DNA of 64,000 nt from a virus (IMGVR_UViG_3300007276_000035:37656-101655), one strand, 5' to 3'. Counted from the first letter of the stretch, positions 24,936-46,494 are shown. Notes: generated by a model not told the origin, from the sequence alone. A program made the numbers and translations.

Positions 24936-25319
24936 ATGGCATACAGTGATAAAGTTTTAGATCATTACGAAAACCCGCGCAACGTTGGTAAGTTTGATCC
25001 AAAAGAAGATAGCATAGGCACCGGAATGGTGGGCGCGCCAGCATGTGGTGACGTAATGAGACTACAAATTAAAGTTGGTAAAGATGGTTTAATCGAAGAC
25101 GCTAAGTTTAAAACATACGGTTGCGGCAGTGCTATTGCATCAAGTTCGCTACTAACTGAATGGGTAAAAGGAATGACACTAGAACAAGCAAGTGAAGTGC
25201 GAAACACAGAAATTGCTCAAGAACTAGCATTACCGCCAGTTAAAATACATTGCAGTGTATTAGCTGAGGATGCTATCAAAGCCGCCGTTCGCGACTATCG
25301 AGAAAAGCATGGATCTTAA
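24936..25319 (+). CDS. iscU: Fe-S cluster scaffold IscU
   Basis: MAYSDKVLDHYENPRN, GAPACGD, KTYGCGSA, LPPVKIHCS. Confidence 0.98.
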   Translation: MAYSDKVLDHYENPRNVGKFDPKEDSIGTGMVGAPACGDVMRLQIKVGKDGLIEDAKFKTYGCGSAIASSSLLTEWVKGMTLEQASEVRNTEIAQELALPPVKIHCSVLAEDAIKAAVRDYREKHGS

Positions 25320-25713
25320 AAAAGCATTATGGTACACAGCAGGAATGCTGTGTCTAGTGTTAGCTTATATTGGATTTATACTACCAGGTATTCCTTTTAG
25401 CATTCCATTGGTAGGTGCAGCGTATTGCTTTGCTAAATCAAGTGAAAAAATGCACGACTGGTTATATAACCATCCTTGGTTTGGTGAGTTCTTAACAAAC
25501 TTTACTGAAAAGAAAATATTTCCTACCAAAGCAAAGTACATGATGGTAGCAATGATGTCTACAACTGTAGTCATTATGTGGTTTACTACACATAACCTTG
25601 TTGCTGTATTTTGGGCAGCACTGTTTATGGCAAGTGGTGCATGGTGGACTTGGCGCTTGCCAGGTAGTGAGGAAGAATGGGAAAAGAGACAGAACAAATC
25701 TACTACGAAGTAG
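25309..25713 (+). CDS. YbaN/DUF454 membrane protein
   Basis: IG.ILPGIP, AAYCFAKSS...H.WL..HP.FG. Confidence 0.85.
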   Translation: MDLKKALWYTAGMLCLVLAYIGFILPGIPFSIPLVGAAYCFAKSSEKMHDWLYNHPWFGEFLTNFTEKKIFPTKAKYMMVAMMSTTVVIMWFTTHNLVAVFWAALFMASGAWWTWRLPGSEEEWEKRQNKSTTK

Positions 25714-26117
25714 ACCTTCCACAATTACCGGATGATATATTAGACTCTGATCCGGAATCAATCCTTAAACGTACCTGTACCTTCGACCGTATCGAATACG
25801 GGTACGGTAGCTTTGAAGCAAACCCAGAGCTATACGAGTTCTTACAGCCCTACTACAAAACGCCAATTATTGTACGCTATCAATTAGTGCTTAACGACTT
25901 ACCTAAGCACACTGACTTTTGTGATCAAGACTACAAATGCAATTACATTATTACACCAGGTGGTGACAATGTAATAACCACCTGGTACAAACAGGATCGC
26001 GTATTAGCTTATACTCAATTCGAATCACAGTTATGGTACAAGTTTAACGTGACACTTGAACACGATGTAATAAATGTAAAATCACCTCGCGTAAGTGTAA
26101 CGGTGAAAGAAACATGA
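25677..26117 (+). CDS. 2OG-Fe(II) oxygenase-like protein
   Basis: LPKHTD, NYII..GG, distal H.V....PR. Confidence 0.6.
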   Translation: MGKETEQIYYEVDLPQLPDDILDSDPESILKRTCTFDRIEYGYGSFEANPELYEFLQPYYKTPIIVRYQLVLNDLPKHTDFCDQDYKCNYIITPGGDNVITTWYKQDRVLAYTQFESQLWYKFNVTLEHDVINVKSPRVSVTVKET

Positions 26118-26416
26118 AGCGGTACTTAATAACAGCTTGGATGATCTTGATTTGGTGTTTGTTGTTACCTATAACACCATTTATTAAACAAAGTAACTGT
26201 TGGTATTATAGTGTAAAGAAACGTATATCGCAGGGCGGATCTATTGAGGCAATAGCAAGTAAGTATTGGTCAGGATATCACTTTGCTTGGATAGATCAAG
26301 ACGGGGTTTTCCATGATTATAATGTAAGATACCGCTTACCTGATCACAGCCCTTGGTGGAAGTTTATCTTATATAGCGGCAGAGAGCGTGAATTCAAAAG
26401 AATAAAAATAGGTTGA
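26114..26416 (+). CDS. Hypothetical protein with hydrophobic N-terminus
   Basis: ATGA coupling; SNCW, HFAW motifs. Confidence 0.6.
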   Translation: MKRYLITAWMILIWCLLLPITPFIKQSNCWYYSVKKRISQGGSIEAIASKYWSGYHFAWIDQDGVFHDYNVRYRLPDHSPWWKFILYSGREREFKRIKIG

Positions 26417-26441
26417 CAAGTTACTATTAACCTAGTAATAT
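26413..26441 (+). promoter_or_regulatory. sigma70-type promoter
   Basis: TTGACA-N17-TAATAT. Confidence 0.6.
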
Positions 26442-26479
26442 AGTATATATAGTTACAATTTTACTAGGAGTAATAGTAC

Positions 26480-26899
26480 ATGACAATGCACCTATTAGGT
26501 CACCAGTATTCAACTATCAACACCAAGAAGCGTAAAGTGAAGTATACAAGAGCACAGCAAGAATCGTGGACTAAAGAGTGGCGCGCACAAAACAAATGGA
26601 ACAAGCAACGCGGGTTTCCATCTATTACCTTAGAAGAATTTATCGATCAATTGCACGGCAAGACTAAACGTGTATTGAAACAACCTACATTGTCTGCTCC
26701 TCAAACTACAAATTATCGAGAGACACAACCATATCCTAGTAAAAGCGACGAAGGTGTGGGTATCGCTGGTAAACAAGAACCAAAAGTTTACGACGGTGAG
26801 CGCAAGTTGTTGGGTATTGCTACAATGCATAAGTCAAATATGGTACCTGTGTTTGATCAAGAAAGTGCAAAAGATATAGCTAACATGAGGCGTAACTAA
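26480..26899 (+). CDS. Conserved T4-like hypothetical protein
   Basis: GIATMHKSNMVPVF...AKDIA.MRR. Confidence 0.8.
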   Translation: MTMHLLGHQYSTINTKKRKVKYTRAQQESWTKEWRAQNKWNKQRGFPSITLEEFIDQLHGKTKRVLKQPTLSAPQTTNYRETQPYPSKSDEGVGIAGKQEPKVYDGERKLLGIATMHKSNMVPVFDQESAKDIANMRRN

Positions 26900-27111
26900 T
26901 GAATTACTTTAACATGCAAGGTCCATTAATTAATTTGGATCATGTGCGTAAAATTACAGAAATCGTAGACATTGCGCACCCCAGCGATTCCAGAATAACA
27001 GCAGGCTTTACATTAGAATACAGTGACGGAACCGTAGAAAAGTTTGCTGGCTCTGGTGATACAATGACATCATTGTACGAACGGTTAAGAACACGGGCAC
27101 AAAAGTTCTAG
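26899..27111 (+). CDS. Hypothetical protein
   Basis: TAATG coupling. Confidence 0.6.
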   Translation: MNYFNMQGPLINLDHVRKITEIVDIAHPSDSRITAGFTLEYSDGTVEKFAGSGDTMTSLYERLRTRAQKF

Positions 27112-27150
27112 ATTTTAGAACAAGAGCATATATCCAAAGATAAATAAAGT

Positions 27151-27231
27151 TGTAACAAAAACAAATAATACGCCAATTGGGTTTATTTGTGTTACATTAA
27201 ATCTTGCTTAACTTAAAGGAGATACACTATG
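27151..27231 (+). promoter_or_regulatory. ROSE-like RNA thermometer leader of hsp20
   Basis: Long hairpin 27151-27196, then AUCUUGCU (27201-27208) pairing with SD AAGGAGAU (27216-27223). Confidence 0.6.
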
Positions 27232-27705
27232 ACAAGCAAACCATTACGACTCTCATTGAGAGATCTTCAAAACACCCCATTAGGTAAACTAGGCATTGGA
27301 TTCGATCGCACGTTCGAAGACATGTTCGACGCAGCAGGCGCTTGCTTAACAGGTAACGGAGGCTACCCTCCCTACAATATTGCTAAACTTACCGATGACC
27401 TTGGCAGCAGCACTTACGAAATAACGTTAGCTGTAGCTGGATTCAAGGATGACGACATAGAGATTGTTGTCGAAAACAATCATTTGCGTGTCGTTGGTAA
27501 TTCTAACGCATTGTCTCAAAAAGAAGACGTATCGGTGGAATACCTACATAAAGGCATTGCGGAGCGCAACTTTACCCGCACTTTTACTTTGGCAGAACAT
27601 GTAGAAGTACGAGAAGCTCTTTTGCGTGATGGTATCTTAAAGATACGATTGGTGAGAACTGTCCCAGAGGAACTACAACCTCTGAAGATAGAAATCAAAT
27701 CTTAA
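27229..27705 (+). CDS. hsp20: Small heat shock protein (IbpA-like)
   Basis: IGFDR.F, YPPYNI, LAVAGF, YLHKGIA.R.F.R.F.LAEH. Confidence 0.95.
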   Translation: MTSKPLRLSLRDLQNTPLGKLGIGFDRTFEDMFDAAGACLTGNGGYPPYNIAKLTDDLGSSTYEITLAVAGFKDDDIEIVVENNHLRVVGNSNALSQKEDVSVEYLHKGIAERNFTRTFTLAEHVEVREALLRDGILKIRLVRTVPEELQPLKIEIKS

Positions 27706-27710
27706 TCAAC

Positions 27711-27736
27711 ATGGTCCCTGTTCAAGCAGGGACCAT
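27711..27736 (+). terminator. Hairpin, probable terminator
   Basis: ATGGTCCCTG-TTCAAG-CAGGGACCAT 10-bp stem. Confidence 0.6.
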
Positions 27737-27759
27737 TAACTTTACACACAGAGGTACAA

Positions 27760-28056
27760 ATGGCTAACACTAAAACAAAAACCAAAGAATCAGTTGATAT
27801 TTCTTACCCTAGTCGATTTAAGGTAATAATCCACAATGATGACTTTACGCCTGTTGAATTTGTTATTCAGCTATTAGTTGAAATATTTAACAAGACAATC
27901 GACGAAGCTAACGATATAACTATGCTAGTGCATACACAAGGATCTGGTATAGCAGGAGTTTACAGCTACGAAGTAGCAGAACAAAAACTCCATGAGGCGA
28001 GTTTAATTATAAGGCACAAAGGGCATCCGCTTCTGGTCGAAATAGAGGCTGTGTGA
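27760..28056 (+). CDS. clpS: N-degron adaptor ClpS
   Basis: VIIHNDDFTPVEFV, ML.VH..G..IAG, YEVAEQK. Confidence 0.95.
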   Translation: MANTKTKTKESVDISYPSRFKVIIHNDDFTPVEFVIQLLVEIFNKTIDEANDITMLVHTQGSGIAGVYSYEVAEQKLHEASLIIRHKGHPLLVEIEAV

Positions 28057-29279
28057 AAAATATTTTTAACAAACGGTATTTTTCTATATTTAAAAATAAT
28101 CCAGATTTAATTTATATGGATAGTGCAGCTAGCACACAAACGCACGATTCTGTTCTGCAAGCTATGCATCGTTATTACACTGAATATAGAGCTAATGTAG
28201 GTAGAGGTGAATATCCTTTGTCTGAGCAAGCTACGATAGCCGTAGATATAGCAAGAGAACAAGTAGCATCGCTTCTATCAACAACAGCAGACCATATACT
28301 GTTTACTAGCGGTGCTACGCAAGGATTAAACATGGTAGCAAATTGGAACAAAAGTGTTCCTCAAGTTATCATAACAGAACTAGAACATAATGCAAACATA
28401 GTGCCTTGGTTAGCTCAAGGCCGGACAGTGCATAATAACCAATTACGTGTTATCCCAAGTTCGGGAAGCACAATTAACATAGACAAAGCCGTAGAAATAC
28501 TTGAAGAAGCACCTGCTGGTTCTTTACTTAGTATAACAATGGTTAGTAACGTATCAGGCGTAGATGTCTGTACGGACAGATTAATAAAAATGGCGAGATC
28601 CTTAGGGCATCAGGTTTGCATAGATGCTTGTCAAGGAATGCCGTATTGTTTGCCAGCTGGAATAGCTAGTGGATTGTTTAGCACTATAATAGATGCAGAC
28701 TACCTGGTGTTTAGTGCGCATAAGATGTACGGCCCAACCGGAGTAGGGGCGGTATATGTTAAGCACAATCTAGATAAAATGAGACCACAATACTTTGGTG
28801 GCGGCGCAGTAGCAAATGTTACGTTTGATGGCATTGAATATTCGACAGGTGTCAGCAAGCATGAACCTGGAACACCAAACATTGCTTCTATAATTGGATT
28901 TGGGCAGATTGCTGAAATGTATAGTTATGTAGGTTACGAAAAAATACTTGATCTTTACCTAAACAAATTTAAACTAAGTAGGCAGTATTTTGCAAATATC
29001 CCTGGCCTAACTCCTGTAGGACGGTCTGACGCAAGCACTCGACTATCGGTATCCATGGCAACCTTTATTCCCAACAATCACCATAGTTCAGATATAAGTA
29101 CACTGCTTAGTAGAACAAATTTGGCAGTCAGAACAGGTAGACTATGTTCTCACCCTTACGTAGATAAGATTTCAAAAGGTAAGGGAGTTGTTAGACTTAG
29201 CTGGGGTTTATACAACGACGAAGATGATTTTAGACAAGCTCGAGAGATACTTGAAAACACAATGAAGAAACTTAATTAG
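28053..29279 (+). CDS. sufS: Cysteine desulfurase (SufS/CsdA group II)
   Basis: YMDSAAST, FTSGAT, EH.AN, SAHKMYGPTG, RTGRLCSHP. Confidence 0.9.
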   Translation: MKNIFNKRYFSIFKNNPDLIYMDSAASTQTHDSVLQAMHRYYTEYRANVGRGEYPLSEQATIAVDIAREQVASLLSTTADHILFTSGATQGLNMVANWNKSVPQVIITELEHNANIVPWLAQGRTVHNNQLRVIPSSGSTINIDKAVEILEEAPAGSLLSITMVSNVSGVDVCTDRLIKMARSLGHQVCIDACQGMPYCLPAGIASGLFSTIIDADYLVFSAHKMYGPTGVGAVYVKHNLDKMRPQYFGGGAVANVTFDGIEYSTGVSKHEPGTPNIASIIGFGQIAEMYSYVGYEKILDLYLNKFKLSRQYFANIPGLTPVGRSDASTRLSVSMATFIPNNHHSSDISTLLSRTNLAVRTGRLCSHPYVDKISKGKGVVRLSWGLYNDEDDFRQAREILENTMKKLN

Positions 29280-29288
29280 GAGACACAC

Positions 29289-29822
29289 ATGCAAACATTT
29301 GTAGTTACAGTTCCAGAAGTAACATTTAAAACTAGGATTCAAACAGACGAAGCACCAGGCTTTGCTTGGAAGGATGTAACAAGTAGAGATATATTCCAGG
29401 GCAAGCGAGTTGCTGTATTTTCACTTCCTGGCGCATTTACTCCTACATGCTCTAGTACCCATTTGCCGGGATTCGAAGCTGCATACGATCAGCTTAAAGA
29501 GCAAGGTATTGATGAAGTATACTGCATAAGTGTAAACGATGCATTTACTATGAATGCTTGGTTAACAAGCCTGGATATTGAGAACGTTAAGCCTATACCA
29601 GACGGCAGCGGTGAGTTTACTCGCAAGATGGGCTTTTTGGTAAACAAAGACAACCTTGGTTTTGGTATGCGTTCTTGGCGCTATAGCATGATTGTAAGAG
29701 ATGGCGTAGTAGAAATGATGTGGGTAGAGCCAGGTCTTAAGGATAACGCAGAAAATGACCCGTTCATAGTTAGTGATGCACAGACTATGCTCGACTTTCT
29801 AAAGAAACCCAAAGAAGAATAA
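29289..29822 (+). CDS. Peroxiredoxin (Prx5-like)
   Basis: SLPGAFTPTCS..HLPG, SVND, RSWRYSM. Confidence 0.95.
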   Translation: MQTFVVTVPEVTFKTRIQTDEAPGFAWKDVTSRDIFQGKRVAVFSLPGAFTPTCSSTHLPGFEAAYDQLKEQGIDEVYCISVNDAFTMNAWLTSLDIENVKPIPDGSGEFTRKMGFLVNKDNLGFGMRSWRYSMIVRDGVVEMMWVEPGLKDNAENDPFIVSDAQTMLDFLKKPKEE

Positions 29823-29833
29823 AGGAGACAGTA

Positions 29834-30013
29834 ATGGCAGGAAAAGGTGACACCCCTCGTCCACTATCAGTGACGAGAAAACAGTTCGACGATGAATATG
29901 ATAGAATATTCCGGAAGCGAGCTGAAGACAAGAAGCGCAAAGAAGCACTCGACCAACTCGCTGAAATAGCGCAAGAACATGGCGAATATGACACAAAACC
30001 GGAGAAAGAATAA
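29834..30013 (+). CDS. Small hypothetical protein (59 aa, not in ORF track)
   Basis: AAGGAG RBS; MAGKGDTPRP...FDDEYDRIF. Confidence 0.7.
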   Translation: MAGKGDTPRPLSVTRKQFDDEYDRIFRKRAEDKKRKEALDQLAEIAQEHGEYDTKPEKE

Positions 30014-30016
30014 AGG

Positions 30017-30045
30017 TTGACACATATACAAATAGGTAGTAAAAT
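30017..30045 (+). promoter_or_regulatory. sigma70-type promoter (leaderless gene follows)
   Basis: TTGACA-N17-TAAAAT; ATG 6 nt downstream. Confidence 0.6.
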
Positions 30046-30051
30046 AAGTAT

Positions 30052-30483
30052 ATGAGTAAATTACTAAACTTATTAGAAAAGTGTGACCGCAAAAGAGTTA
30101 TTCTCGATCGACAAAGTTCTGATCCTTATTTAACACGATATTACTTGCTATTTAAAGATCGGCCTTCATGGTTTCCGTTTAACATATTTTTGCATAATTT
30201 TCATAAAGGAGACCCTGATGACTTACACGATCATCCTTGGCCTTATTTCACTTTTATACTGCGTGGTGGTTATTGGGAGCATACTCCAGGAGGACGATTC
30301 TGGAGAGGCCGCGGGCATTTTAGAATCTGCGGTGCTCGTAGTTTGCATCGGATTGAGCTTGACCCTGATCACGATACTTGGACATTATTTATACCTGGAC
30401 TCAAGTTACGCGAGTGGGGGTTTGTAGATAATGGTATTTGGAAACAACACGAAGATTATTTAACTGAGAAATACAAAGGGTAA
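30052..30483 (+). CDS. Cupin-fold protein
   Basis: FLHNF...DPDDLHDHPW, GGYWE, HRIEL. Confidence 0.75.
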   Translation: MSKLLNLLEKCDRKRVILDRQSSDPYLTRYYLLFKDRPSWFPFNIFLHNFHKGDPDDLHDHPWPYFTFILRGGYWEHTPGGRFWRGRGHFRICGARSLHRIELDPDHDTWTLFIPGLKLREWGFVDNGIWKQHEDYLTEKYKG

Positions 30484-30490
30484 CGCTACA

Positions 30491-30658
30491 GTGATAGTTT
30501 GTGTTTGCGGGAATGTATCCACTGAAGATGTAAAGAATACAGAACAAAAAACTTTAGAGGAATTTAAAAAAGAAACCGGAGCGTGTGTCAAGTGCTGCAA
30601 GTGCTGTGACACACTTAATCATTATTGGAATAAGTTTCATGAAAATCAAAATAGTTAA
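30491..30658 (+). CDS. bfd: Bfd-like [2Fe-2S] ferredoxin (55 aa, not in ORF track)
   Basis: MIVCVCGNVS...TGACVKCCKCC fits CxC...CxxC. Confidence 0.75.
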   Translation: MIVCVCGNVSTEDVKNTEQKTLEEFKKETGACVKCCKCCDTLNHYWNKFHENQNS

Positions 30659-31283
30659 AGCCTACATGGACACAGCGTTCCGCTTTGCAGAATGTAGTAC
30701 AGCAGTACGCGCTAAAGTAGGAGCTATTGTTGTTAAGGATGATAGCATTATTTCAATCGGATATAACGGTACCCCCAGCGGCTGGGGTAATTGCTGCGAA
30801 ACGAGAGAGTATATGTCTCCGGATGCAGGAAGTTGGCTTGACCCAGACACTATCGAAGAACAATGGCCTTATACAGAAATTGTCGAAGAAGCAGACGTAG
30901 AAGTTGATCAAGAAGCATATAAGGCTTATGTAGCAGTATTAAATACCAATGAGTTTGTTGCGCCTTTAGAGATACACTACAGGAAAACTGGTGAAGTCTT
31001 TCGTTCGGAAAAACGTTATGCACTAGTAACCAAACCAGAAGTAAACCATGCTGAGTTTAATGCGATTGTTAAGCTAGCCAAACGAACCGAAAGTTCGGAT
31101 GGTGCTACACTATTTTGCACACACAGTCCTTGCGAAAATTGTGCAAAACTTATTGCACTAAGTGGAATCAGAACAGTTTATTACGGCAAAGACTGGCCTA
31201 GCAGCAAAACATCGCCACAAGGCTTAGAGTACTTAAAGAAATCCTCAGTAGAGGTAATTAGAGTATTGGGATACCAAGAATGA
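30639..31283 (+). CDS. dCMP deaminase
   Basis: S.A.R.KVGA, GYNGTP.G, HAE.NAI, HSPC..C. Confidence 0.93.
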   Translation: MKIKIVKAYMDTAFRFAECSTAVRAKVGAIVVKDDSIISIGYNGTPSGWGNCCETREYMSPDAGSWLDPDTIEEQWPYTEIVEEADVEVDQEAYKAYVAVLNTNEFVAPLEIHYRKTGEVFRSEKRYALVTKPEVNHAEFNAIVKLAKRTESSDGATLFCTHSPCENCAKLIALSGIRTVYYGKDWPSSKTSPQGLEYLKKSSVEVIRVLGYQE

Positions 31284-31669
31284 CAACTACATTTGGTTAT
31301 GATCATCTAGATGAGCTTCAAGATCGCTACCCCGCACCGATAGGAGATAGTTATCTAGCAGGCGCAATAGAGGGATATTTACTACACGGTATTCTCCCAG
31401 GGCCTTTTTTAGAAGCTATGCTTTCTAATGATCTTTTTGGTGCAGTGGGGAACGCCGTGAATCACGGCGTTCTTAGAAGCGCAGATTATAGGGATCGCAA
31501 GCATTTATATGATTCTGCACGGTGGATCAAGAAATATGTTCCCAAGGAAGCATACGGTTCACGAAAGAAAGTAGCTGAATGGAGTAAAAACAAAAAACTA
31601 AGAGAACAGTTTCGTTTAGAGTATGCTGCATCAAAGTTAAGCGGGTGCCCGATTATTAACTTTGGATAA
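31280..31669 (+). CDS. Hypothetical protein
   Basis: GI.PGPFL.A.LSNDL..A, AYGS...V..W. Confidence 0.7.
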   Translation: MTTTFGYDHLDELQDRYPAPIGDSYLAGAIEGYLLHGILPGPFLEAMLSNDLFGAVGNAVNHGVLRSADYRDRKHLYDSARWIKKYVPKEAYGSRKKVAEWSKNKKLREQFRLEYAASKLSGCPIINFG

Positions 31670-31677
31670 ATAAATGT

Positions 31678-32208
31678 ATGGTATCCAGAATCGAATTCAG
31701 CCGCAATCCCGAACTCACAGTAAAACGTGTTCCGAGTGATGCGCAACACATCGGTAAACTCAAGAGTCTCGATGTGTATTGGCATGAACCTGACTCCGAT
31801 GAGGGTGATGTATATGTTACTAGGCAAGACGAGCGTAACCGGAAAAGAATAGTCGCCCTTTGACAGTTTGGAAAGTTTCCTGGTAAACCAGCATGGCAAG
31901 TAGACATGGCATCAGTTAACCCCCAATATCAGGGACACGGAATAGTGCCTATGATTTATCGTTTTTTGATGCTAAACATTCCGGGATTTATATTACAAGC
32001 AGGTAGCACACAAAGCAGGGGTGGCAGGGCTATCTGGAACGTCCTTGCTAATTTCAAGGACATTGTTGTATATACTATGAAAGGTAAAGAAGCCATTGAG
32101 CTAGGGTCAGATCCGCTAAGCGGGGAAGTATCTGGTGAAGAAGACGGCATTACTGTATACGGTGATTACGATGACAACAAAACTCAAGTTTACGCAACAA
32201 AACGCTAA
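31678..32208 (+). pseudogene. GNAT-like acetyltransferase interrupted by in-frame TGA (31861-31863)
   Basis: ORFs 31678-31863 and 31906-32208 share a frame with a single TGA; WQVDMASVNPQYQGHGI, QS.GG..IW. Confidence 0.6.
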
Positions 32209-32212
32209 AAAC

Positions 32213-32368
32213 GTAAGTCATTGATTTTATTGGATATTTTTTTCCTTATAAATCAATGACTTACAAAATCCACTAAAATAGCTCAAATTATTTTAAAAAC
32301 CTATATATTTCAATGACTTACATGGTTGACACATGTAGTAGATGTGCTATCATATACATGTAGGTTAA
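32213..32368 (+). repeat. IHF-site array plus early promoter cassette, copy B
   Basis: Near-identical to 3276-3433; TTGACA(32326)-N16-TATCAT. Confidence 0.85.
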
Positions 32369-32387
32369 AAAACAGAGAGTAGAGCTT

Positions 32388-32771: not shown

Positions 32772-32772
32772 T

Positions 32773-36018: not shown

Positions 36019-36114
36019 CCTTATAAATCAATGACTTACAAAATCAAGTTATTTTAAAAGTCCTTATAAATCAATGACTTACGTGGTTGACAAAACCTGT
36101 ATGTGTGCTATAAT
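36019..36114 (+). repeat. IHF-site array plus early promoter cassette, copy C (shorter)
   Basis: Two direct CCTTATAAATCAATGACTTAC units, then TTGACA(36087)-N16-TATAAT. Confidence 0.85.
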
Positions 36115-37781: not shown

Positions 37782-38504
37782 TTGTACACCGAAAAGGTTG
37801 TTGACGTATTTCACTACGGTGAGAGCATGTTTCGATTTCGAACCACGCGCGATACAACCTTTCGCTTTAAGAACGGCGAGTTCGCTATGATTGGCATGTA
37901 CAGTCAGAAGTATAAGAGAGAAATACATCGTGCGTATAGTATTGTAAGTACAAGCTACGATGATTATCTTGAATTCCTTAGTATCAAAATTGAGGATGGG
38001 CCTCTTACTAGTGAACTACAGCATATCCAACCAGGCGATGAGATTTTAATCAAGCCTAAAACAACAGGTAGTCTTTGTGCAGACTACTTAACTCCTAAAG
38101 AGAATCTTGTCATGTTATCTACAGGAACAGGACTTGCTCCATTTGTGAGTATAATCCGAGACCCGTATACCTACGAAAGATTCAAAAACGTTTACTTATT
38201 TCATACAGTACGAAAGGTAAACGAGCTAGCATTTAGTAACACAATACTTGATGTGTGCAACGATGTACCGCTAACCTACATACCAACAGTGACCCAAGAA
38301 CCGTACGAACGGGAAGGACGCTTTTGGAAATATCTACCTGGCGTACTAGGACACGAATTAGATTATGACATAGATGGTGTTATGGTCTGCGGCAGTATGC
38401 AACTAAACAAAGAATGCCGAGATAAGTTTAGTACAGCAGGATGGCAAGAAGGAAACACCGGAGAAATGGGTGATTTCTTATTAGAACGTGCATTTGTAGG
38501 TTGA
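37782..38504 (+). CDS. fpr: Ferredoxin-NADP+ reductase
   Basis: F.FRTTR, F.NGEF.MIG, RAYSI.S, GPLTS.L, STGTGLAPF, VCGS, ERAFV. Confidence 0.95.
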   Translation: MYTEKVVDVFHYGESMFRFRTTRDTTFRFKNGEFAMIGMYSQKYKREIHRAYSIVSTSYDDYLEFLSIKIEDGPLTSELQHIQPGDEILIKPKTTGSLCADYLTPKENLVMLSTGTGLAPFVSIIRDPYTYERFKNVYLFHTVRKVNELAFSNTILDVCNDVPLTYIPTVTQEPYEREGRFWKYLPGVLGHELDYDIDGVMVCGSMQLNKECRDKFSTAGWQEGNTGEMGDFLLERAFVG

Positions 38505-38528
38505 CAGTAATCTATTCTGTGCTATAAT
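38501..38528 (+). promoter_or_regulatory. sigma70-type promoter (16-bp spacer, extended -10)
   Basis: TTGACA-N16-TATAAT preceded by TGTGC. Confidence 0.7.
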
Positions 38529-38560
38529 GTACATGTAGATATTATTTGTAGGAGAAAACA

Positions 38561-38926: not shown

Positions 38927-39432
38927 TGAACAAATTAAATGATATAGAAACAGGATGGATATTTGTTGGCGTTGTCCAGTGTGTGTTTATCCTTTCAATG
39001 GTAATGCTTGCAGGGTGCATGGGTGGTAGCTTAAAGCCAGCTGACACAGTTCGCAAAGACGCCAAACAAATAGAAGACGTCAAAGAAGGAACCATCATAC
39101 AAATTGTTGATGTTACTATACGAGGTAACACAGAAGCAGCACAGGCTGCTGGTGGTTTACTTGGTGGCTACGCAGCAAACAGAGCAACACGTGACCAAGA
39201 CGAAGTTGTTCAAGTATTAGCATCAGCTGGCGGATTACTAGTTGGTACTATTGTTGGAGACTCTATGAGCGATTTGGCGCTAGATAAACCAGGTGTCAAT
39301 TTGTTAGTTAAGTCTAGAGGTAGAATTATAGCTATAACGCAGCAAGTGGATCGTAGACAGAACTTCAAGGTCAACGATAATGTCTGGATCATTGGGTCTG
39401 GTAAAAAAGTAAGAGTGCTCCTTAAGGATTAA
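38926..39432 (+). CDS. SlyB/Pcp-like glycine-zipper lipoprotein
   Basis: Lipobox LAGC, two glycine zippers, I.Q....F..ND.V. Confidence 0.75.
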   Translation: MNKLNDIETGWIFVGVVQCVFILSMVMLAGCMGGSLKPADTVRKDAKQIEDVKEGTIIQIVDVTIRGNTEAAQAAGGLLGGYAANRATRDQDEVVQVLASAGGLLVGTIVGDSMSDLALDKPGVNLLVKSRGRIIAITQQVDRRQNFKVNDNVWIIGSGKKVRVLLKD

Positions 39433-39434
39433 AA

Positions 39435-40220
39435 ATGACAAATAGATACTTTAAAGTTGACCTAGGAAGATATGGTGCTGAATTAACAATCGGTACTGTA
39501 AACAAAGAGTTTGTTGAGTACTGGAATGATAAGCCCCCAGAAGAACTTGTTGACCATTTGCAAGCAGTTAATTGGTCTGATAATAGTGCAGAGGACACTG
39601 ATAGTCCTCCTATGATTGATGACTTTGATACTTCTTGGTCAGAAGTAGATGACTTTGAGCATTTGTTTGCGCCAGCAGCCTCCGGCAGTTATGAGGTAGT
39701 AGAGGTAGAAATAACGCCAGGCGCTGAGTTTTCTTGCGGTGAGCTAGTTTGGGCCAACCCAGACGAACACAGATACAGCGAAGACAAGTATACTGAACTA
39801 GGCGAAAGTGTTCGGTATGACCATGAAAACTTTTTGTATGGAAGAGAAGCGTACACTAGCGAACCTACCGAAGATGTTCTTGCTTCACTGAGTGAAGACC
39901 AAGAGCTATGCCCAGTTCTTGTGTATGCTAGTGTAGAGAAAGGTTGCTTCGGGGAAGTTGTTATCCAGACAACCGGGAGTGATTTTGATCCTGAGCTATT
40001 TTCAGTTGGTACAGTAGAAACAGATCTCGATGAACTAATTGAGACTTGCTGGTATGATGGCGCAGAAGTTATCATAAACCAAGATAACATATCAACCGAC
40101 AGTAGGGACACTAACGTATTAGTAGGATACATAAATCCTGAATGGCACGGAGAGTCAACCGACTTTGCTGCTGATACTGAACTTCTTCGAGAGCTACTGT
40201 TAGACTTTTATCCGGCATAA
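39435..40220 (+). CDS. Acidic hypothetical protein
   Basis: YGAE.TIG.V, S.EKG.F. Confidence 0.7.
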   Translation: MTNRYFKVDLGRYGAELTIGTVNKEFVEYWNDKPPEELVDHLQAVNWSDNSAEDTDSPPMIDDFDTSWSEVDDFEHLFAPAASGSYEVVEVEITPGAEFSCGELVWANPDEHRYSEDKYTELGESVRYDHENFLYGREAYTSEPTEDVLASLSEDQELCPVLVYASVEKGCFGEVVIQTTGSDFDPELFSVGTVETDLDELIETCWYDGAEVIINQDNISTDSRDTNVLVGYINPEWHGESTDFAADTELLRELLLDFYPA

Positions 40221-40287
40221 ACCAAAATATTTGAGCACTGTAGGTATGTTCGGTTAAGTAACGTATATAGGCGTCCAGGCTGGAGAA

Positions 40288-40854
40288 TTGCTAGTGATAA
40301 TTGATAAACAAAAAGTACATACAAATGACCCGTCAGTGCAGGACTTGCTAACAGAAGTTAATGCGTCTGTAGACCTACAGCAGATGTTTTCAACGTTCCA
40401 TGGCGATAAATTTAATCTTACTCCGGTAATAACATATCTAGCCGCTCTTGGGATTGATTACAACAAGTTTGGGGTAACAAACCAAGCACCTGTCGCAGTA
40501 ACATCACTACCTTCTGGCGGGCAGTTAGGGGTGCATACTGATCTCAATGAATCAGAGTACACATTGATAATCCCTTTGCAAGGAAAATGCAGTTGGGTAG
40601 AATACGCTATCCGCGACGGTGAATCACCCGAATACATTACAGTAGGTGGTGGTAAGCCTTTCTATTTAAAGTGGGAAGAAAAACAACTAGGAGCAAAGAT
40701 AGTTACTCCAATTCTTGGCGCACACTTTGTAAGCACTTCTGGTCCACACAATGTGATCAATGTAGATGAGAATGAAAGAAGCATACTAATGTCAGTGCGA
40801 TTAGGCATAAACTTTAAATTACATACATTCCTCAAGGACAAGAATGCGAATTGA
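40288..40854 (+). CDS. 2OG-Fe(II) oxygenase-like protein
   Basis: LGVHTD, LIIPL.G, PHNV.N....R. Confidence 0.6.
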   Translation: MLVIIDKQKVHTNDPSVQDLLTEVNASVDLQQMFSTFHGDKFNLTPVITYLAALGIDYNKFGVTNQAPVAVTSLPSGGQLGVHTDLNESEYTLIIPLQGKCSWVEYAIRDGESPEYITVGGGKPFYLKWEEKQLGAKIVTPILGAHFVSTSGPHNVINVDENERSILMSVRLGINFKLHTFLKDKNAN

Positions 40855-41938
40855 CAATGAATTAAAACTAGACTACAATGATGTACTGTTTAGGCCGAAA
40901 CGAAGTGAGATGGCTAGTCGGAGTGAAGTTGATCTAAGCAAAACATACACTTTCCGTAACAGTGGTGCAGTTTATAACGGAATCCCTATTATGGCAGCAA
41001 ATATGGATGGGGTGGGCACTTTTAATATTGCTGCTACATTGAAAGAACATGGCTTGTTTACTTGTCTAGTTAAAAATTATGAGCTTGAAGATTGGAAGGA
41101 CAATCAAGACTTATTCTTTCCAGAGAACACCGCTATTAGTACAGGGGTTACTAAAGAAGATCTAGCAAAAACAAAGAAGATCATAAAGCAAAACTCCAGC
41201 ATTAAATATATTTGCATCGATGTAGCTAACGGTTACAGTGAAAAGTTCCTAGAAGTGGTAAGTAAGTATAGAGACTTGTATCCTGACCTTGTTATTATGG
41301 CAGGCAATGTTGTCACACCTGATATAACTGAGGAACTTATACTGCGTGGAACTGATATTGTTAAAGTGGGTATTGGCCCAGGTAGCGTGTGTACTACTCG
41401 CATTAAAACTGGCGTGGGTTACCCTCAACTTTCCGCGGTCATCGAATGCGCTGATGCGGCGCATGGCCTTGGTGGTCATATTATTGCTGATGGTGGTTGC
41501 AGTACTCCTGGTGATGTGGCTAAATCCTTTGGGGCAGGGGCTGATTTTGTTATGCTCGGAGGGATGCTAGCTGGCACCACACAGGGCGGTGGCGAAGTAA
41601 TACACAAGAAATACCGCACCAACGAGGTAGGTTGGAAAGGGGTAATGGACGATGTATATAAAACTCAAGCAGTAATTAAATTTCACGGAATGAGTTCAAC
41701 TAGGGCACAGGAGAAAAACGGTGGCACAAAAAATTATAGAGCAAGTGAAGGTAGAGTTGTTGAGGTTCCATTCCGCGGTGATGTCGAGTCCATTGTGCGA
41801 GACATTTTGGGCGGGCTCAGGAGTACTTGTACTTATGTGGGTGCTCGGACTTTAAAAGAGCTTCCTAAGCGTACAACGTTTATTCGTTGTACTAACACAC
41901 ACAATAAAGTCTACGAAAGTAATACCGTGGGCGAATAA
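40844..41938 (+). CDS. guaC: GMP reductase
   Basis: MRID.ELKLD..DVL.RPKRS, CIDVANGYS, GIGPGSVCTTR, YRASEG. Confidence 0.97.
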   Translation: MRIDNELKLDYNDVLFRPKRSEMASRSEVDLSKTYTFRNSGAVYNGIPIMAANMDGVGTFNIAATLKEHGLFTCLVKNYELEDWKDNQDLFFPENTAISTGVTKEDLAKTKKIIKQNSSIKYICIDVANGYSEKFLEVVSKYRDLYPDLVIMAGNVVTPDITEELILRGTDIVKVGIGPGSVCTTRIKTGVGYPQLSAVIECADAAHGLGGHIIADGGCSTPGDVAKSFGAGADFVMLGGMLAGTTQGGGEVIHKKYRTNEVGWKGVMDDVYKTQAVIKFHGMSSTRAQEKNGGTKNYRASEGRVVEVPFRGDVESIVRDILGGLRSTCTYVGARTLKELPKRTTFIRCTNTHNKVYESNTVGE

Positions 41939-41947
41939 GGATAATAA

Positions 41948-42871
41948 ATGGAACCAACATTAGCAAACATTTTAGCATATAATCGAAACCCGCACCTAAC
42001 TAAATTTTGTACAGAAAGACTAGAGGCGCTGATAAACGAAGGTGTGTATCATAGCGATATTGACGAACTTAGCACATGCATAATCGATAAGTTAACAGCT
42101 TACAAAGACAAGCATGGCGTAAGGAAAGTGATGGTTGGTATGAGCGGTGGTATTGATAGTGCTCTTACGGCAGCACTGTTCAAGAAAGCAGGATACTTTG
42201 TTTACGGTATAACAATGCCTATCCATCAGAAGCCTGAAGAAACAGGTCTAGCGTGGGAGGCAATGGATACCCTTGGTGTTGAATCCCTAGAGATAAACTT
42301 ATCTCGTGCTTACGAAGGCATGTATAATGAGTTCCAGCAATTCGACAACACGTTAATAAATGATCGAAGCGCCAAGCGTAGAGGCAACATCAAGGCTCGT
42401 TTGCGCATGATGACTCTGTATAATTTTGCAAGTTTGCATGGCGGTATTGTCGCTAGCACTGATAATTTTAGCGAGCTAGCAGCAGGGTTTTGGACACTAC
42501 ATGGTGACGTGGGTGATGTTGCGCCAATACAATCGTTAACTAAGTCTTGGGAAGTTCCTGCTCTTGCTGAGCTTATGGGTGTTCCAAAAAGCATCATACA
42601 AGCCACACCAACTGACGGTTTAGGTATTAGTCATTCAGATGAATCTCAACTTGGCTTTAGTTACCTTGCGTTTGATGTTATGTTGCTAAGTCTTATGACT
42701 ACTGGTATAGACGAATACGCAATCGATGAAGGCTCAGCGAGAATGCTTAATGCAATCAAGAGTAGAATTAAGAATACATCGTTTAAGCGTAACAATCCAT
42801 ACAACTTAGACCACCCAAAATTTGAAGACAGATTTGATCTACTAGCTAAGTTAGATGATAGTCTAGAATAA
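41948..42871 (+). CDS. nadE: NH3-dependent NAD+ synthetase
   Basis: GMSGGIDSA, NIKARLRM, TDN.SE, GF.T.HGD, PTDGL...SDE.QLG. Confidence 0.92.
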   Translation: MEPTLANILAYNRNPHLTKFCTERLEALINEGVYHSDIDELSTCIIDKLTAYKDKHGVRKVMVGMSGGIDSALTAALFKKAGYFVYGITMPIHQKPEETGLAWEAMDTLGVESLEINLSRAYEGMYNEFQQFDNTLINDRSAKRRGNIKARLRMMTLYNFASLHGGIVASTDNFSELAAGFWTLHGDVGDVAPIQSLTKSWEVPALAELMGVPKSIIQATPTDGLGISHSDESQLGFSYLAFDVMLLSLMTTGIDEYAIDEGSARMLNAIKSRIKNTSFKRNNPYNLDHPKFEDRFDLLAKLDDSLE

Positions 42872-42876
42872 ACATT

Positions 42877-43605
42877 ATGTTTATATGGCTTGGAGATAGT
42901 TGGCAAATAGGCGCAGAATTAAGAAAGGATTCTAAACGTGAGTTGTCATTTGACTTGCGGTTTCCGCACCAGTCACTGATTCACGAGGACGATCCAGAGT
43001 TAGCATATCCTAGTTTAGTAAGTCAGCATTTTAATCAAGACATATTAGTATTAGCAATAGGTGGCGGTAGTATGCATTTTGCTGCTTATGCTCTAATGCA
43101 ATTGCTGTTAAATCGAACAACATTTGACGAGCCAACTACTGTGTTTGTACCTGACACAGGAGAAATGCGCAGGTTTGGTATTAACCTAATAGGGCAAACA
43201 GTACATGAAGGCTCAGACCTAGCAAATATAAGGGACCGAGATCCGTATCAAACTTACCAAGATATAAATCGAGAGCAATTTGCGATTTACGATTATACTA
43301 TGGCATTAAATAATATCTATTTAACTGCTGAAAAACTAGGTATACATCTTGTGCGATATCATTCTTGGTGTGTAGCTGAACCGATGATGGATCTATTATT
43401 GATACCAGAAGAAAATCACTACCACAAAGAACAATTTACGTTAACAAGTGACCTTCAAAGTTACACTGATGATGTTTACAAGACTTTTATGTATCCATGT
43501 GAAGCGCACCCTAACGTAGTAGGACACAAAGCAATGGCAAACGCAATGATAAATTTACTAGACGATAATGATAATTTTAGACAAACAAGAAAGGACTTAT
43601 ACTAA
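42877..43605 (+). CDS. SGNH-like protein (tandem paralog A)
   Basis: MFIWLGDSW..GAE, PELAYP, GGGS.HFA, PCEAHPN..GH. Confidence 0.7.
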   Translation: MFIWLGDSWQIGAELRKDSKRELSFDLRFPHQSLIHEDDPELAYPSLVSQHFNQDILVLAIGGGSMHFAAYALMQLLLNRTTFDEPTTVFVPDTGEMRRFGINLIGQTVHEGSDLANIRDRDPYQTYQDINREQFAIYDYTMALNNIYLTAEKLGIHLVRYHSWCVAEPMMDLLLIPEENHYHKEQFTLTSDLQSYTDDVYKTFMYPCEAHPNVVGHKAMANAMINLLDDNDNFRQTRKDLY

Positions 43606-44363
43606 TGTTTATATGGCTAGGACATAGTTGGGTAGTTGGTGCCGAGATGGCAGAGCTAATAACTAAAACGCCCAGTGTAGCAAGTGCTAAGTTTCCTCAC
43701 GTAGCAGCAACCGATGCCCCTGAGCTAGCATACCCAGACATAGTAAGCAAAATGTTTGGCGAAAGTTATGTTAACTTCGGTCGAGGAGGATCAAGTGTTC
43801 ATTTTGCTAATTGGAACTTGATACAACTGATAAAAGACAATACGGTTTTCCATGAACCTACTACAGTACTTTTCAGCCATTGTTCAGAACTTAGACGGTT
43901 CGGCCGACATTTAATTACAAAAGAGCATATCCACGATGGTCAGGCAGCATTCGGTATAGCAAGCCTAAAAGATAAAGATAAATACCTAGCAGAAGACCCG
44001 ACCCTTGAGAAATACGGTGGAGTCAGAAATTTAGAACGGTCTGAGTTTTGCGTGTATGATTACACAATGGCACTGAATACTATGTACTTAGCAACAAAAC
44101 AGCTAGGTGTAAATTTAGTGGTTTACAGTGTAACAAATACATCTGAACTTAACGAAGACGATCTTATAGTTCCACCTGAATGCTTTTTAGAAAGTAATCA
44201 GCCTGTATTGGGACAAGAGGTTTTTGATAATCCCAACAAATACATGCATCCTTGCCTAGGACATGCAAACATAGAGGGAAACAAAATTATAGCAGATCGC
44301 ATGAAAACTGCCCTAGATATGAATCCAGTATTTAAATCAATCAGGCAAGATCTTTATAAATAA
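43605..44363 (+). CDS. SGNH-like protein (tandem paralog B)
   Basis: MFIWLGHSW..GAE, PELAYP, GGSS.HFA, PCLGHAN..GN. Confidence 0.7.
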   Translation: MFIWLGHSWVVGAEMAELITKTPSVASAKFPHVAATDAPELAYPDIVSKMFGESYVNFGRGGSSVHFANWNLIQLIKDNTVFHEPTTVLFSHCSELRRFGRHLITKEHIHDGQAAFGIASLKDKDKYLAEDPTLEKYGGVRNLERSEFCVYDYTMALNTMYLATKQLGVNLVVYSVTNTSELNEDDLIVPPECFLESNQPVLGQEVFDNPNKYMHPCLGHANIEGNKIIADRMKTALDMNPVFKSIRQDLYK

Positions 44364-44402
44364 TTACACTATTTTATATAACCAATCTTAAGGAGAACGA
44401 TA

Positions 44403-44735
44403 ATGGACATTATGAATTTTGGAAGTTTGCTAATACTGCTTGCCGTTGTTGCCGCAGCATTTGCAGTAGTCGTGTTTATCAAAAAACAAGACGACAAGAA
44501 AGATGAAGAAGGTACTGCTCTTGAGGAGGTAACAAGAAGTATTGTTACAGTAGAAAAGCCAGCGCCTCTTCCTAGTAACGCAGAACTCATCAAGAAAACC
44601 AAGAAAGCCCTTAAAGAGTTCGCACAAGACACTTGGGGTATCGAACTTGATGTTACTAAGACCAAAGCAACAATGATCGAAGACCTGTTGACTTCACACA
44701 AAGAAGCTGTAACTTTGTACAAGAACGCAGATTAA
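44403..44735 (+). CDS. Membrane-anchored protein with HeH-like C-terminus
   Basis: N-terminal TM segment; TKKAL.EFA....GIELD..KTKA.MI; late promoter TATAAATA at 44355. Confidence 0.65.
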   Translation: MDIMNFGSLLILLAVVAAAFAVVVFIKKQDDKKDEEGTALEEVTRSIVTVEKPAPLPSNAELIKKTKKALKEFAQDTWGIELDVTKTKATMIEDLLTSHKEAVTLYKNAD

Positions 44736-44746
44736 GATAAATAGAT

Positions 44747-44860
44747 ATTGTGAGAACTTCATCCTTCTCACAATTAACCTTGTTTTACTGATGCTACCTA
44801 AAGTAGGTCAATCAAAACAAGTTAGGTTGGTGCTACGATGTAGACCAACAAACGGATGCT
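44747..44860 (+). ncRNA. Candidate structured RNA or leader (three hairpins)
   Basis: Follows GATAAATA 44736-44743; stems at 44747-44774, ~44776-44828 and 44826-44849. Confidence 0.45.
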
Positions 44861-44885
44861 AGAAATTTAGATTCGGAGAAAAAGA

Positions 44886-45050
44886 ATGTCTAAAGAAACT
44901 CACCTAAACCCGGTGACAGACGCGAGTCTGTCTATATGCCCTAAAACATCAATATGTGAAAAGGTAGACAAGATGATAATGTGCTTCGGCGCAATGATGG
45001 TAACAGCATCTGCTAGCTTTACTATATTTTATGGACTAGGTTCAATGTAA
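44886..45050 (+). CDS. Small membrane peptide (54 aa, not in ORF track)
   Basis: GGAG RBS; hydrophobic C-terminus; followed by hairpin. Confidence 0.55.
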   Translation: MSKETHLNPVTDASLSICPKTSICEKVDKMIMCFGAMMVTASASFTIFYGLGSM

Positions 45051-45052
45051 AC

Positions 45053-45076
45053 TTATTGGGTCTTCGGACCCAATAA
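45053..45076 (+). terminator. Hairpin terminator with cUUCGg loop
   Basis: TTATTGGGTC-TTCG-GACCCAATAA. Confidence 0.7.
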
Positions 45077-45095
45077 CTTAATAAAAAGAATTATT

Positions 45096-45470
45096 ATGTT
45101 ACAACACTACATAGACACAGTTAATAATTTTTATTCTGCAGAAGAATTTGATGATTGGCTGCTTAGTCTTAGTGATCCAATTCCCACTAGTATTTCTAAA
45201 GAAATACGCAAAAAAAGTAACTTAGTTAGAGGATGCGAAATCTCTACCTGGTTATCACGCACCGAATCAGAGGATGGTCCGGTAATACTTTACGACAGCG
45301 ACTCTAGGATGAACTTGGGCTTAGCTAAGATAATAGTAGACGTTTGTAATTCAACTGGCGTAAATAATTTAAGTTTTTATGACCTCAATGAAGTTACACA
45401 GTTCTTAACACTAAACAAGAAGCGCGGCTTACAACTAATGTTAAACAAAATACGTTTAATAATGTCTTGA
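45096..45470 (+). CDS. sufE: SufE-like sulfur acceptor
   Basis: NLVRGCEISTWL, DSDSRMNLGLA, LT..KKRGL. Confidence 0.75.
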   Translation: MLQHYIDTVNNFYSAEEFDDWLLSLSDPIPTSISKEIRKKSNLVRGCEISTWLSRTESEDGPVILYDSDSRMNLGLAKIIVDVCNSTGVNNLSFYDLNEVTQFLTLNKKRGLQLMLNKIRLIMS

Positions 45471-45495
45471 CAAACTAGAAAAACCACGTTATACT
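45467..45495 (+). promoter_or_regulatory. sigma70-type promoter
   Basis: TTGACA-N17-TATACT. Confidence 0.7.
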
Positions 45496-45524
45496 ATATA
45501 CTCACAGTACACAGGAGAAGCAAT

Positions 45525-46112
45525 GTGAATTATGTACCTTATGTAATAGAGCAAACAAGCAACGGTGAACGTAGTTATGATATCTACAGTCGGATGCTTA
45601 AAGAACGTATCATTTTTCTTAATGGTGAAGTTAATGACCCAGTAAGCAATAGCATCTGCGCACAGATGTTATTTCTAGAAGCTGAAGACCCAGACTCGGA
45701 TATCTCTTTTTACATTAATAGTCCTGGCGGCCTTGTGTCAGCAGGTATGGCAATGTATGATACTATGCAGTACATTAAGCCAGATGTGTGTACAATTGTT
45801 ATGGGTCAAGCATGTAGCATGGGCAGCTTTCTTGCGCAAGCAGGAACACCCGGTAAGCGAAAAATGCTTCCCTATGCTCGCCATATGATTCACCAACCTA
45901 GTGGTGGTGCTCAAGGCAAAGCAAGTGACATTGAAATTTCGTATAAAGAGATCATGAACATCAAGAAAACAATGACTAAACTATATGTAAAGCACAACTC
46001 TGCAGGCAAGACATACGAAGAATTTGAAGCGGCGCTAGACCGTGACACGTATATGACAGCAAAAGAGTCGCTTGACTTTGGTTTAATAGACGAAATTGTT
46101 AAGTCGCGTTAG
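45525..46112 (+). CDS. clpP: ClpP protease
   Basis: [39 protein letters not shown]. Confidence 0.98.
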
Positions 46113-46134
46113 CCATTAGTGGTAAATAAGTTGT

Positions 46135-46494
46135 ATGGACACATTTGATCCGACAACAAGTTTAATCACACTAACTGACAAAGCGCAAGAGCACTTTGCT
46201 AAGGTAGCAACCGACAACGAAGCACTAGGTATTCGGTTGCGCCTAGGTGGTGGTGGATGTGCTGGTTTCCAGTATGAATGGGATATTGTTAAAGACATGG
46301 GCGATATCAAACTACAAGAATTTAGTTTACCTTTCACCGAGTGGACATTCTGGTTAGACAGCGCAAGCCAACAATACTTAGCTGGCAGCATAATTGATAA
46401 AAAAGCTGGCATCACGGGTGAATACATTGATATATCAAGTCCACTAGCAAGCAGTGCATGTGGTTGTGGCGAAAGTGTGAGCTTCACGTTATGA
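46135..46494 (+). CDS. A-type Fe-S carrier (IscA/ErpA/HesB)
   Basis: GGGCAGFQY, CGCGES. Confidence 0.93.
   Translation: MDTFDPTTSLITLTDKAQEHFAKVATDNEALGIRLRLGGGGCAGFQYEWDIVKDMGDIKLQEFSLPFTEWTFWLDSASQQYLAGSIIDKKAGITGEYIDISSPLASSACGCGESVSFTL

Follow-up and report, generated by a model that had tools for sequence, protein, structure and literature searches.

Fe-S cluster biogenesis genes in the window

The DNA analysed here (IMGVR_UViG_3300007276_000035:37656-101655; 64,000 nucleotides, hereafter the window) is the final 64 kb of a 101,655-bp source contig, and the subject of this analysis is a set of genes for building iron-sulfur (Fe-S) clusters, of mixed ISC and SUF type, that lies on its plus strand between positions 24936 and 46494. 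A sequence-only reading of the window had proposed a near-complete hybrid ISC/SUF kit in this region. IscU, SufS with the loop RTGRLC, the SufE-like protein, the A-type carrier (ATC), Fpr, the peroxiredoxin and YbaN were all recovered with strong scores where that reading had placed them, all on the plus strand. The Fe-S genes and their immediate companions are as follows.

24936..25319, plus strand: IscU scaffold, bona fide ISC type (TIGR01999, PF01592 and motifs)
25270..25713, plus strand: YbaN/DUF454 membrane protein (PF04304, 99.3 bits)
28053..29279, plus strand: type II (SufS-family) cysteine desulfurase with loop RTGRLC (PF00266, E 2e-77)
29289..29822, plus strand: Prx5-type peroxiredoxin (PGAFTPTC; PF08534, 89.9 bits), 9 nt 3' of SufS
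30491..30658, plus strand: probable Bfd-like [2Fe-2S] mini-ferredoxin of 55 amino acids (C4, C6, C32, C35; three weak lines of evidence)
37782..38504, plus strand: ferredoxin/flavodoxin-NADP+ reductase (FPR), bacterial subclass I (PDB matches; PF00970 and PF00175)
45096..45470, plus strand: SufE/CsdE-family sulfur acceptor (Cys47), first gene of a SufE-ClpP-ATC block (PF02657, 41.9 bits against a gathering score of 27)
46135..46494, plus strand: A-type Fe-S carrier of the ErpA/SufA/IscA family (TIGR00049, 61.4 bits against 58.8)

The scaffold gene matched PF01592 (E 9e-53) and scored 218.5 bits against TIGR01999, thereby passing the equivalog cut-off of 192.4, and all of the ligands can be read in its translation (Cys37, Asp39, Cys63, His105 and Cys106, in GAPACGDVM, YGCGSA and LPPVKIHCS), together with the HscA-binding motif LPPVK. 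Against the SufU model TIGR01994 it reached 68 bits for a cut-off of 92.5, and only residues 3-90 were aligned; since this score lies below the cut-off and both the His-Cys pair and LPPVK are present, the protein was assigned to IscU and not to SufU. It is 80-85% identical to gammaproteobacterial and betaproteobacterial IscU and 53-57% identical to the IscU of phage relatives, its GC content at third codon positions (GC3) is 0.29, similar to that of the phage genes, and it is the only scaffold found in the 101-kb contig. The IscU of marine relatives resembles SAR86 IscU instead.

The desulfurase scored 273.8 bits against TIGR01979, under the cut-off of 475.1, and its closest solved structures are SufS proteins (180 bits). 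It carries the pyridoxal phosphate lysine (SAHKMYGP), the substrate-binding Arg residues (VRLS Arg) and a catalytic Cys on a short loop, and across this loop it aligns without gaps to E. coli SufS. The signature R-x-G-H-H-C is absent, and His55, His362 and His363 are replaced. A large protein collection held 2,551 homologues, the nearest being 57% identical with its motifs conserved, and the best 120 all read R-x-G-[KR or rarely N]-[LVM]-C and not R-x-G-H-H-C. When 185,579 species genomes were scanned by pattern, ordinary SufS among the matches listed was at most 35% identical, and almost all of the 80 bacterial loci read GHHC. A single-sequence scan of IMG/VR returned no match; the scan based on an alignment found the loci, at 41-44% identity to the window SufS. 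In a quick FastTree of 80 sequences, the window SufS, all metagenome matches and 18 IMG/VR sequences fell together behind a branch of support 100 and length 0.65, with no sequence from a bacterial genome on that side; one cluster is labelled '[bacterium]' by a source. Among the matches listed, the desulfurase clade thus appears to occur only in viral and metagenome contigs. The gene encodes the only Aminotran_5 desulfurase of the 101-kb contig. The hybrid ISC/SUF make-up put forward from the sequence holds.

Cys47 of the SufE-like protein (in RGCE) recurs in at least 90% of the 57 sequences of its family, every one of which matches PF02657. An AlphaFold2 model built on the 57-sequence alignment reached a pLDDT of 97.2, and its top 12 PDB matches were all SufE or CsdE (TM-score 0.66-0.80). 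The protein lies below both equivalog cut-offs, with 30.8 bits against 160 for SufE and 26.9 against 136.4 for CsdE. It is present in 8 of the 19 related viral records and adjoins ClpP where this was examined. The A-type carrier keeps its three Cys (Cys42 and the C-G-C pair; GGGGCAGF, CGCGES), and a 54% identical homologue lies in the same block of the related record G005. The whole SufE-ClpP-ATC block recurs in G005 and G002, and SufE-ClpP in G001. In four relatives, open reading frames (ORFs) of about 200 amino acids match the A-type carrier domain over their first 100 residues (G003:4151-4438, G004:6995-7285, G006:41385-41669 and G010:26831-27136) and may be NfuA-like fusions; the window has none.

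The Bfd-like ORF, which the sequence-only reading had called a Bfd ferredoxin, is present, but this call is weaker than the others: its PF04324 score was 17.7 bits (16.5 in the genome scan), below the gathering score of 26. It has the C-x-C ... C-x2-C pattern (C4, C6, C32, C35) and, preceded by a ribosome-binding site, it is packed tightly into a gap between two genes. In the ESM atlas it lies closest to a 60-amino-acid viral Fer2_BFD family, the neighbours there being small viral proteins, and the four best PDB matches of a single-sequence model (pLDDT 74) were all Pseudomonas aeruginosa Bfd (TM-score ~0.7, probability 0.91-0.98, E 0.24-0.67). No homologue was detected in the phage relatives, and none by k-mer search. 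Three independent lines, each weak, agree that this ORF probably encodes a Bfd-like ferredoxin. The reductase has FAD and NAD(P) domains; over its full length (residues 3-239) it matched PDB entries 6rr3, 4f7d, 2qdx and 1a8p with 194-199 bits, and it gave 91 bits with the E. coli-type Fpr model, below the cut-off of 390; it is 52-59% identical in L007 and G001, and it follows MazG as it does in relatives. No bacterioferritin (Bfr) was found in the 101-kb contig; relatives encode Bfr, and no Bfd was found there. The peroxiredoxin aligned with the Prx domain of PDB 1nm3 at 181 bits, and it is 57-70% identical and syntenic in relatives.

Gene order, phage origin and relatives

The contig is a virus record of the IMG/VR type with a CheckV completeness of 28%. 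Its part upstream of the window encodes a DnaB helicase, a class I ribonucleotide reductase and virion structural proteins akin to cyanomyovirus ones. Of the 160 ORFs in the contig, 74 have counterparts in matching order in G001, a viral contig of 339,794 bp that is rated 91% complete. The contig is accordingly taken as about a quarter (~28%) of a freshwater jumbo phage genome of ~360 kb. The phage setting assumed from the sequence is thus borne out by the virus record, the virion proteins and the collinearity with a 340-kb viral contig. Near-identical DNA was found in freshwater metagenomes from several studies, with copies in at least three independent ones that differ by scattered single bases only; the habitat call excludes low-share runs from sediment, salt marsh and marine samples. 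The window's SufS and SufE are also carried by a longer contig of 132,979 bp. In an independent freshwater run, a 1,039-nt contig spans Hsp20-ClpS-SufS and another spans SufS-Prx, with the junctions at 99% or more, which shows that neither the ClpS-SufS nor the SufS-Prx junction arose through misassembly.

GenBank phage records contained no DNA match to the window and no SufE match. Most of the SufS, IscU and ATC matches there are bacterial sequence filed as phage, and the only informative phages were C48C1, which has IscU alone, and Microcystis phage MaAM05, which has sufS and iscU. An affinity to pelagimyophages was also considered and dropped, given that the pelagimyophage paper names S21 and neither Fe-S nor Clp genes.

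The sequence-only reading had described the Fe-S genes as scattered through the genome. Their placement is not random: they lie in three conserved syntenic blocks, ClpX-bS21-x-IscU, Hsp20-ClpS-SufS-Prx and SufE-ClpP-ATC, which are interleaved with Clp genes. The window proteins were compared by tblastn with 27 IMG/VR loci found with the SufS alignment, and the order ClpX-bS21-x-(IscU)-x-Hsp20-ClpS-SufS-Prx, with GGACT-MazG-FPR further on, was conserved at 40-70% amino acid identity in more than 15 IMG/VR contigs. The neighbouring genes are the following.

22589..23860, plus strand: ClpX unfoldase, first gene of the ClpX-bS21-x-IscU block (NF003745, 487.8 bits against 359)
23844..24200, plus strand: ribosomal protein bS21 homologue, following ClpX (PF01165, E 4e-10)
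24203..24934, plus strand: hyp243, a conserved viral protein with no Pfam or NCBIfam match, 1 nt before IscU
27229..27705, plus strand: Hsp20 small heat-shock protein, start of the Hsp20-ClpS-SufS-Prx block (PF00011, E 8.5e-16), syntenic in all relatives
27760..28056, plus strand: ClpS adaptor (PF02617, 88.8 bits), its stop overlapping the SufS start by 4 nt
45525..46112, plus strand: ClpP protease subunit, flanked by SufE and the A-type carrier (PF00574, 257 bits; NF001368, 300 bits against 249)
59287..62264, plus strand: DnaJ-like co-chaperone and ClpA (PF00226 and PF01556; TIGR02639, 801 bits)

The phage therefore carries a full Clp system (ClpX, ClpS, ClpP and ClpA) with a DnaJ-like protein and Hsp20, and each Clp gene adjoins an Fe-S gene. 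ClpX is 54-60% identical and syntenic in the IMG/VR loci, the bS21 homologue stands next to it in L004, L006, L007 and L015, and hyp243 is 31-33% identical in relatives, its ESM-atlas neighbours all being viral hypothetical proteins. Sigma-70-like sites lie in intergenic gaps at 26413 (before h139), 30017 (before the h143-Bfd-deaminase unit), 36087 and 38501; the last two (36087-36114 and 38501-38528, both intergenic) are perfect 12/12 matches to the consensus with an extended -10 TG. Such strong sites hint at early transcription by the host polymerase.

The relatives fall into two architectures. In type A, the operon reads Hsp20-ClpS-SufB-(85-amino-acid Cys-rich ORF)-SufC-SufD-SufS-DUF59/SufT-x-Prx (G001:C1:127593-135822; loci L017 and L123), so that SufB and SufD are encoded between ClpS and SufS in G001 and G002; type A was recorded for G001, G002, L008, L009, L012 and L019 and partly for L010, with L022 also listed as an operon carrier. 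In type B, ClpS is followed directly by SufS, as in the window, L004-L007, L011, L013-L016 and L021. SufS and SufE are kept in both, and the [KR][LVM]C loop is also that of type A SufS. Because the SufS tree shows type A sequences in basal or paraphyletic positions, the loss of SufBCD and SufT is derived. Many relatives carry a bacterioferritin-like protein upstream (in the regions L006:3507-5664 and L004:3855-5958, and at L015:2520-3017); a small cytochrome c (CxxCH) gene was also seen in the IscS/Bfr region of L004 and L006.

In the window's 101-kb contig, which represents ~28% of the genome, we found no SufB, SufC, SufD or SufT, no second desulfurase, no IscS and no Bfr. The kit described here is therefore the version that is most reduced and most hybrid, in which, within 101 kb, the sole desulfurase is SUF-type and the sole scaffold ISC-type. 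A scan of the small ORFs for glutaredoxin, thioredoxin and frataxin found none. At no place in the 101 kb do a desulfurase, its matching scaffold and a chaperone or electron donor stand together as in a self-contained SUF or ISC system.

The count of radical S-adenosylmethionine (SAM) clients, which had been suggested as a check, came to zero in the 101-kb contig; in the near-complete relative G001 it came to 11 matches, 8 of them above cut-off. About seven of these are consecutive at G001:C1:4968-13826, and others lie at 112 kb, 174 kb and 334-337 kb. One radical-SAM protein of 621 amino acids stands beside the SufE-ClpP block of G001, and more such genes were seen in G002, G003, G010 and G016. 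The radical-SAM proteins of G001 are likely clients of the cluster supply.

Three further observations were made in the window. A module for nucleotide/NAD metabolism is suggested by three products encoded at 40844-42871 and on the minus strand at 10325-11782: a protein of the GMP reductase/IMPDH family, the NAD synthase NadE, whose score exceeds the curated cut-off, and a cytidylyltransferase-like protein. A 155-amino-acid ORF at 48696-49163 matches just part of the NTPase domain of DNA polymerase III alpha, and it may represent a polymerase gene that is split or fragmentary. At 53276-54780, PhoH and a gene of the nitroreductase family lie on the minus strand amid a plus-strand region.

Proposed sulfur transfer and dependence on the host

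Given that no HscA/HSP70 and no Fer2 ferredoxin were found, either in the contig or in G000, G001, G002, G005 and G006, the kit is not self-sufficient and must work with the host ISC machinery. We are fairly confident of the broad statement that it acts as a booster which depends on the host and stems from a SUF system of phages. A more specific reading, to which we give about an even chance, is that the genes are a genuine, vertically conserved auxiliary Fe-S supply set, reduced from the SUF system of the phage lineage, combined with a host-like IscU and working with host ISC. In this scheme, SufS would move cysteine sulfur onto its loop Cys, Cys47 of SufE would take up the persulfide in a protected form and, because no SufBCD seems available, the sulfur would pass to an IscU-type scaffold of the phage or of the host. 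The assembled cluster would then be handed to the A-type carrier and on to client proteins, while FPR and the Bfd-like protein would supply electrons and release iron from host bacterioferritin, and Prx5 would clear peroxide. The Fe-S genes would thereby belong to a proteostasis and stress island, set amid early-type sigma-70-like promoters, Clp and chaperone genes.

The direct transfer from SufS-SufE to IscU, which the sequence-only reading had proposed as a non-canonical route, is plausible, though we consider it somewhat less likely than not. In its favour, the 101-kb contig has one Aminotran_5 desulfurase, of the SufS type, and one scaffold, IscU, and SufS and SufE are kept in both architectures. 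Among the 19 related viral records, the 4 with IscU and the 9 with SufBD do not overlap. Of the 25 bacterial genomes whose IscU comes nearest to that of the window, 23 likewise gave no SufBD, and nor did any of the 10 genomes of SAR86 type that best match the marine relatives' IscU. Since the bacteria with the closest IscU mostly have no SufBD, the canonical acceptor of SufE may not exist in these infections. Extended to the family, it is conceivable, if rather doubtful, that in jumbo phages whose bacterial hosts have ISC only, a SufS-SufE pair specific to viruses has come to charge a scaffold of the IscU type in place of the lost SufBCD, which would make it a SUF/ISC chimera and a peroxide-protected donor to the host housekeeping scaffold, with the interleaved Clp genes functionally coupled to it.

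Several points weigh against the reading of an auxiliary supply set with its SufS-SufE-IscU flow. The mutual exclusion of IscU and SufBD is weak (hypergeometric 0.054, not corrected for phylogeny), most of the records being small fragments, and relatives with neither SufBCD nor IscU exist (L007, L016, L021 and G005). L004 and L006 carry a type I IscS (SSGSACTS) directly upstream of IscU, so that the ancestral partner of IscU in this lineage is a type I desulfurase. The near-bacterial identity of IscU, its LPPVK and its phage-like GC3 form the pattern that would be expected if host partners (IscS, HscA) hold it constant. SufBCD, IscS or Bfr could sit in the other ~72% of the genome; an example is L007, where a lone SufB, 60% identical to that of G001, lies 4 kb downstream of SufS (L007:15210-16613) and no SufC or SufD was detected. 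The Bfd call is sub-threshold and unique to this genome. The overall counts of promoters and terminators were not above those of shuffled sequences, and the RNA evidence consists of four exact 151-nt pieces from one RNA library, which could be DNA and are too few to claim transcription.

Some of these points are shared with a rival explanation in which the proteins are independent plug-ins, each working with host partners only: IscU would be an extra scaffold for host IscS, HscBA and Fdx, SufS-SufE would feed the SufBCD of the host or of the unseen 72% of the phage, and no sulfur would pass from SufSE to IscU. Purifying selection on host-partner surfaces would account for the same IscU features, the SAR86-like IscU of the marine relatives looks host-matched, IscU stands alone in phage C48C1 and in L004 and L006 has an IscS of the phage as its partner, and in type A relatives with the same desulfurase loop the scaffold served by SufS-SufE is SufBCD. 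We nevertheless consider this explanation rather unlikely, given that SufBD was not found in the 101 kb of the contig, although ClpS and SufS invariably flank it in relatives, nor in 33 of the 35 candidate host-like genomes. If SufS-SufE instead served as a sulfur relay for other chemistry, such as tRNA or cofactor thiolation or phage radical-SAM modification enzymes, in analogy to CsdA-CsdE, then IscU and the carrier would be unrelated auxiliaries. The SufE-like protein does score alike whether SufE or CsdE is taken as model or fold, a changed partner specificity is suggested by the altered Cys loop and the three lost His residues, and radical-SAM genes lie beside the SufE-ClpP block in G001 and G002. 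This relay is improbable, however, because relatives have SufS of this clade within a canonical sufBCDS-sufT operon, the contig has no radical-SAM gene, and no acceptor of the ThiI, MnmA or TcdA type was found, the PP-loop protein at 41948 being NadE by the curated cut-off.

It might further be argued that the genes are decaying leftovers of an ancestral island with little function here, as SufBCD, SufT, Bfr and IscS of that island are missing from the contig. We regard this as very improbable: all reading frames are intact with their catalytic residues kept, the motifs of SufS are conserved at 57% identity to its nearest homologue, the copies in at least three freshwater studies differ by no more than scattered bases, and the SufE model is confident.

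Known assembly systems and significance

The kit shares with the E. coli SUF system (SufA, SufBCD, SufS, SufE) a type II pyridoxal phosphate desulfurase with a short Cys loop, an acceptor of the SufE fold with a conserved Cys and an A-type carrier. The adjacent peroxiredoxin suggests a similar oxidative-stress context, and relatives hold the whole of sufBCDS with SufT. It differs from that system in that the contig has no SufBCD, the loop is RTGRLC and not RTGHHC, His55 is replaced, SufS falls under the TIGR01979 cut-off, and the genes lie in blocks with Clp genes and not in one operon. With bacterial ISC (IscS-IscU-IscA-HscBA-Fdx) it has in common an IscU that passes the equivalog cut-off with all ligands and LPPVK, and a carrier that is ErpA/IscA-like; no IscS is found in the contig, however, and no HscA/HSP70 or Fer2 there or in the five records searched, while L004 and L006 have IscS-IscU.

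Sulfur exchange between a type II desulfurase and an IscU-like fold has a precedent in SufSU of Bacillus subtilis. As in this Firmicute pair, the window encodes a type II desulfurase alongside a protein of the IscU fold, but that protein is IscU and not SufU by its model scores, His-Cys and LPPVK, and a separate SufE is present. The iron-release pathway of P. aeruginosa FPR, Bfd and bacterioferritin (BfrB) is likewise established. P. aeruginosa FPR is among the closest solved relatives of the window's reductase, and the best fold matches of the 55-amino-acid protein are to P. aeruginosa Bfd; in contrast to that pathway, the Bfd-like protein of the window is sub-threshold and found in this phage alone, and no Bfr of the phage's own was found in 101 kb.

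PMC8940887, citing Sharon et al. (2011), reports sufE, nifU/iscU and sufA/iscA as single virus-encoded auxiliary genes in marine viromes, and sufE without sufS is noted there as well. Unlike such single genes, the phage described here has a multi-gene set on one genome, a desulfurase of an apparently virus-specific clade and relatives with full SUF operons. In the literature searched, whose coverage was incomplete, neither a SUF operon on a phage nor this desulfurase clade nor the interleaving with Clp genes was found described.

This phage family bears on the extent to which an entire pathway of cofactor assembly can be carried by a virus. On otherwise collinear genomes it presents a graded series, from a full SUF operon through SufS-SufE with IscS-IscU to SufS-SufE with IscU alone, and this series constitutes a natural experiment on the interchangeability of SUF and ISC parts. 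The virus-clade desulfurase without the His residues of the signature loop offers a ready test of their role and of acceptor specificity, and the radical-SAM enzymes of G001 give a concrete ground on which a phage would safeguard a cluster supply of its own.

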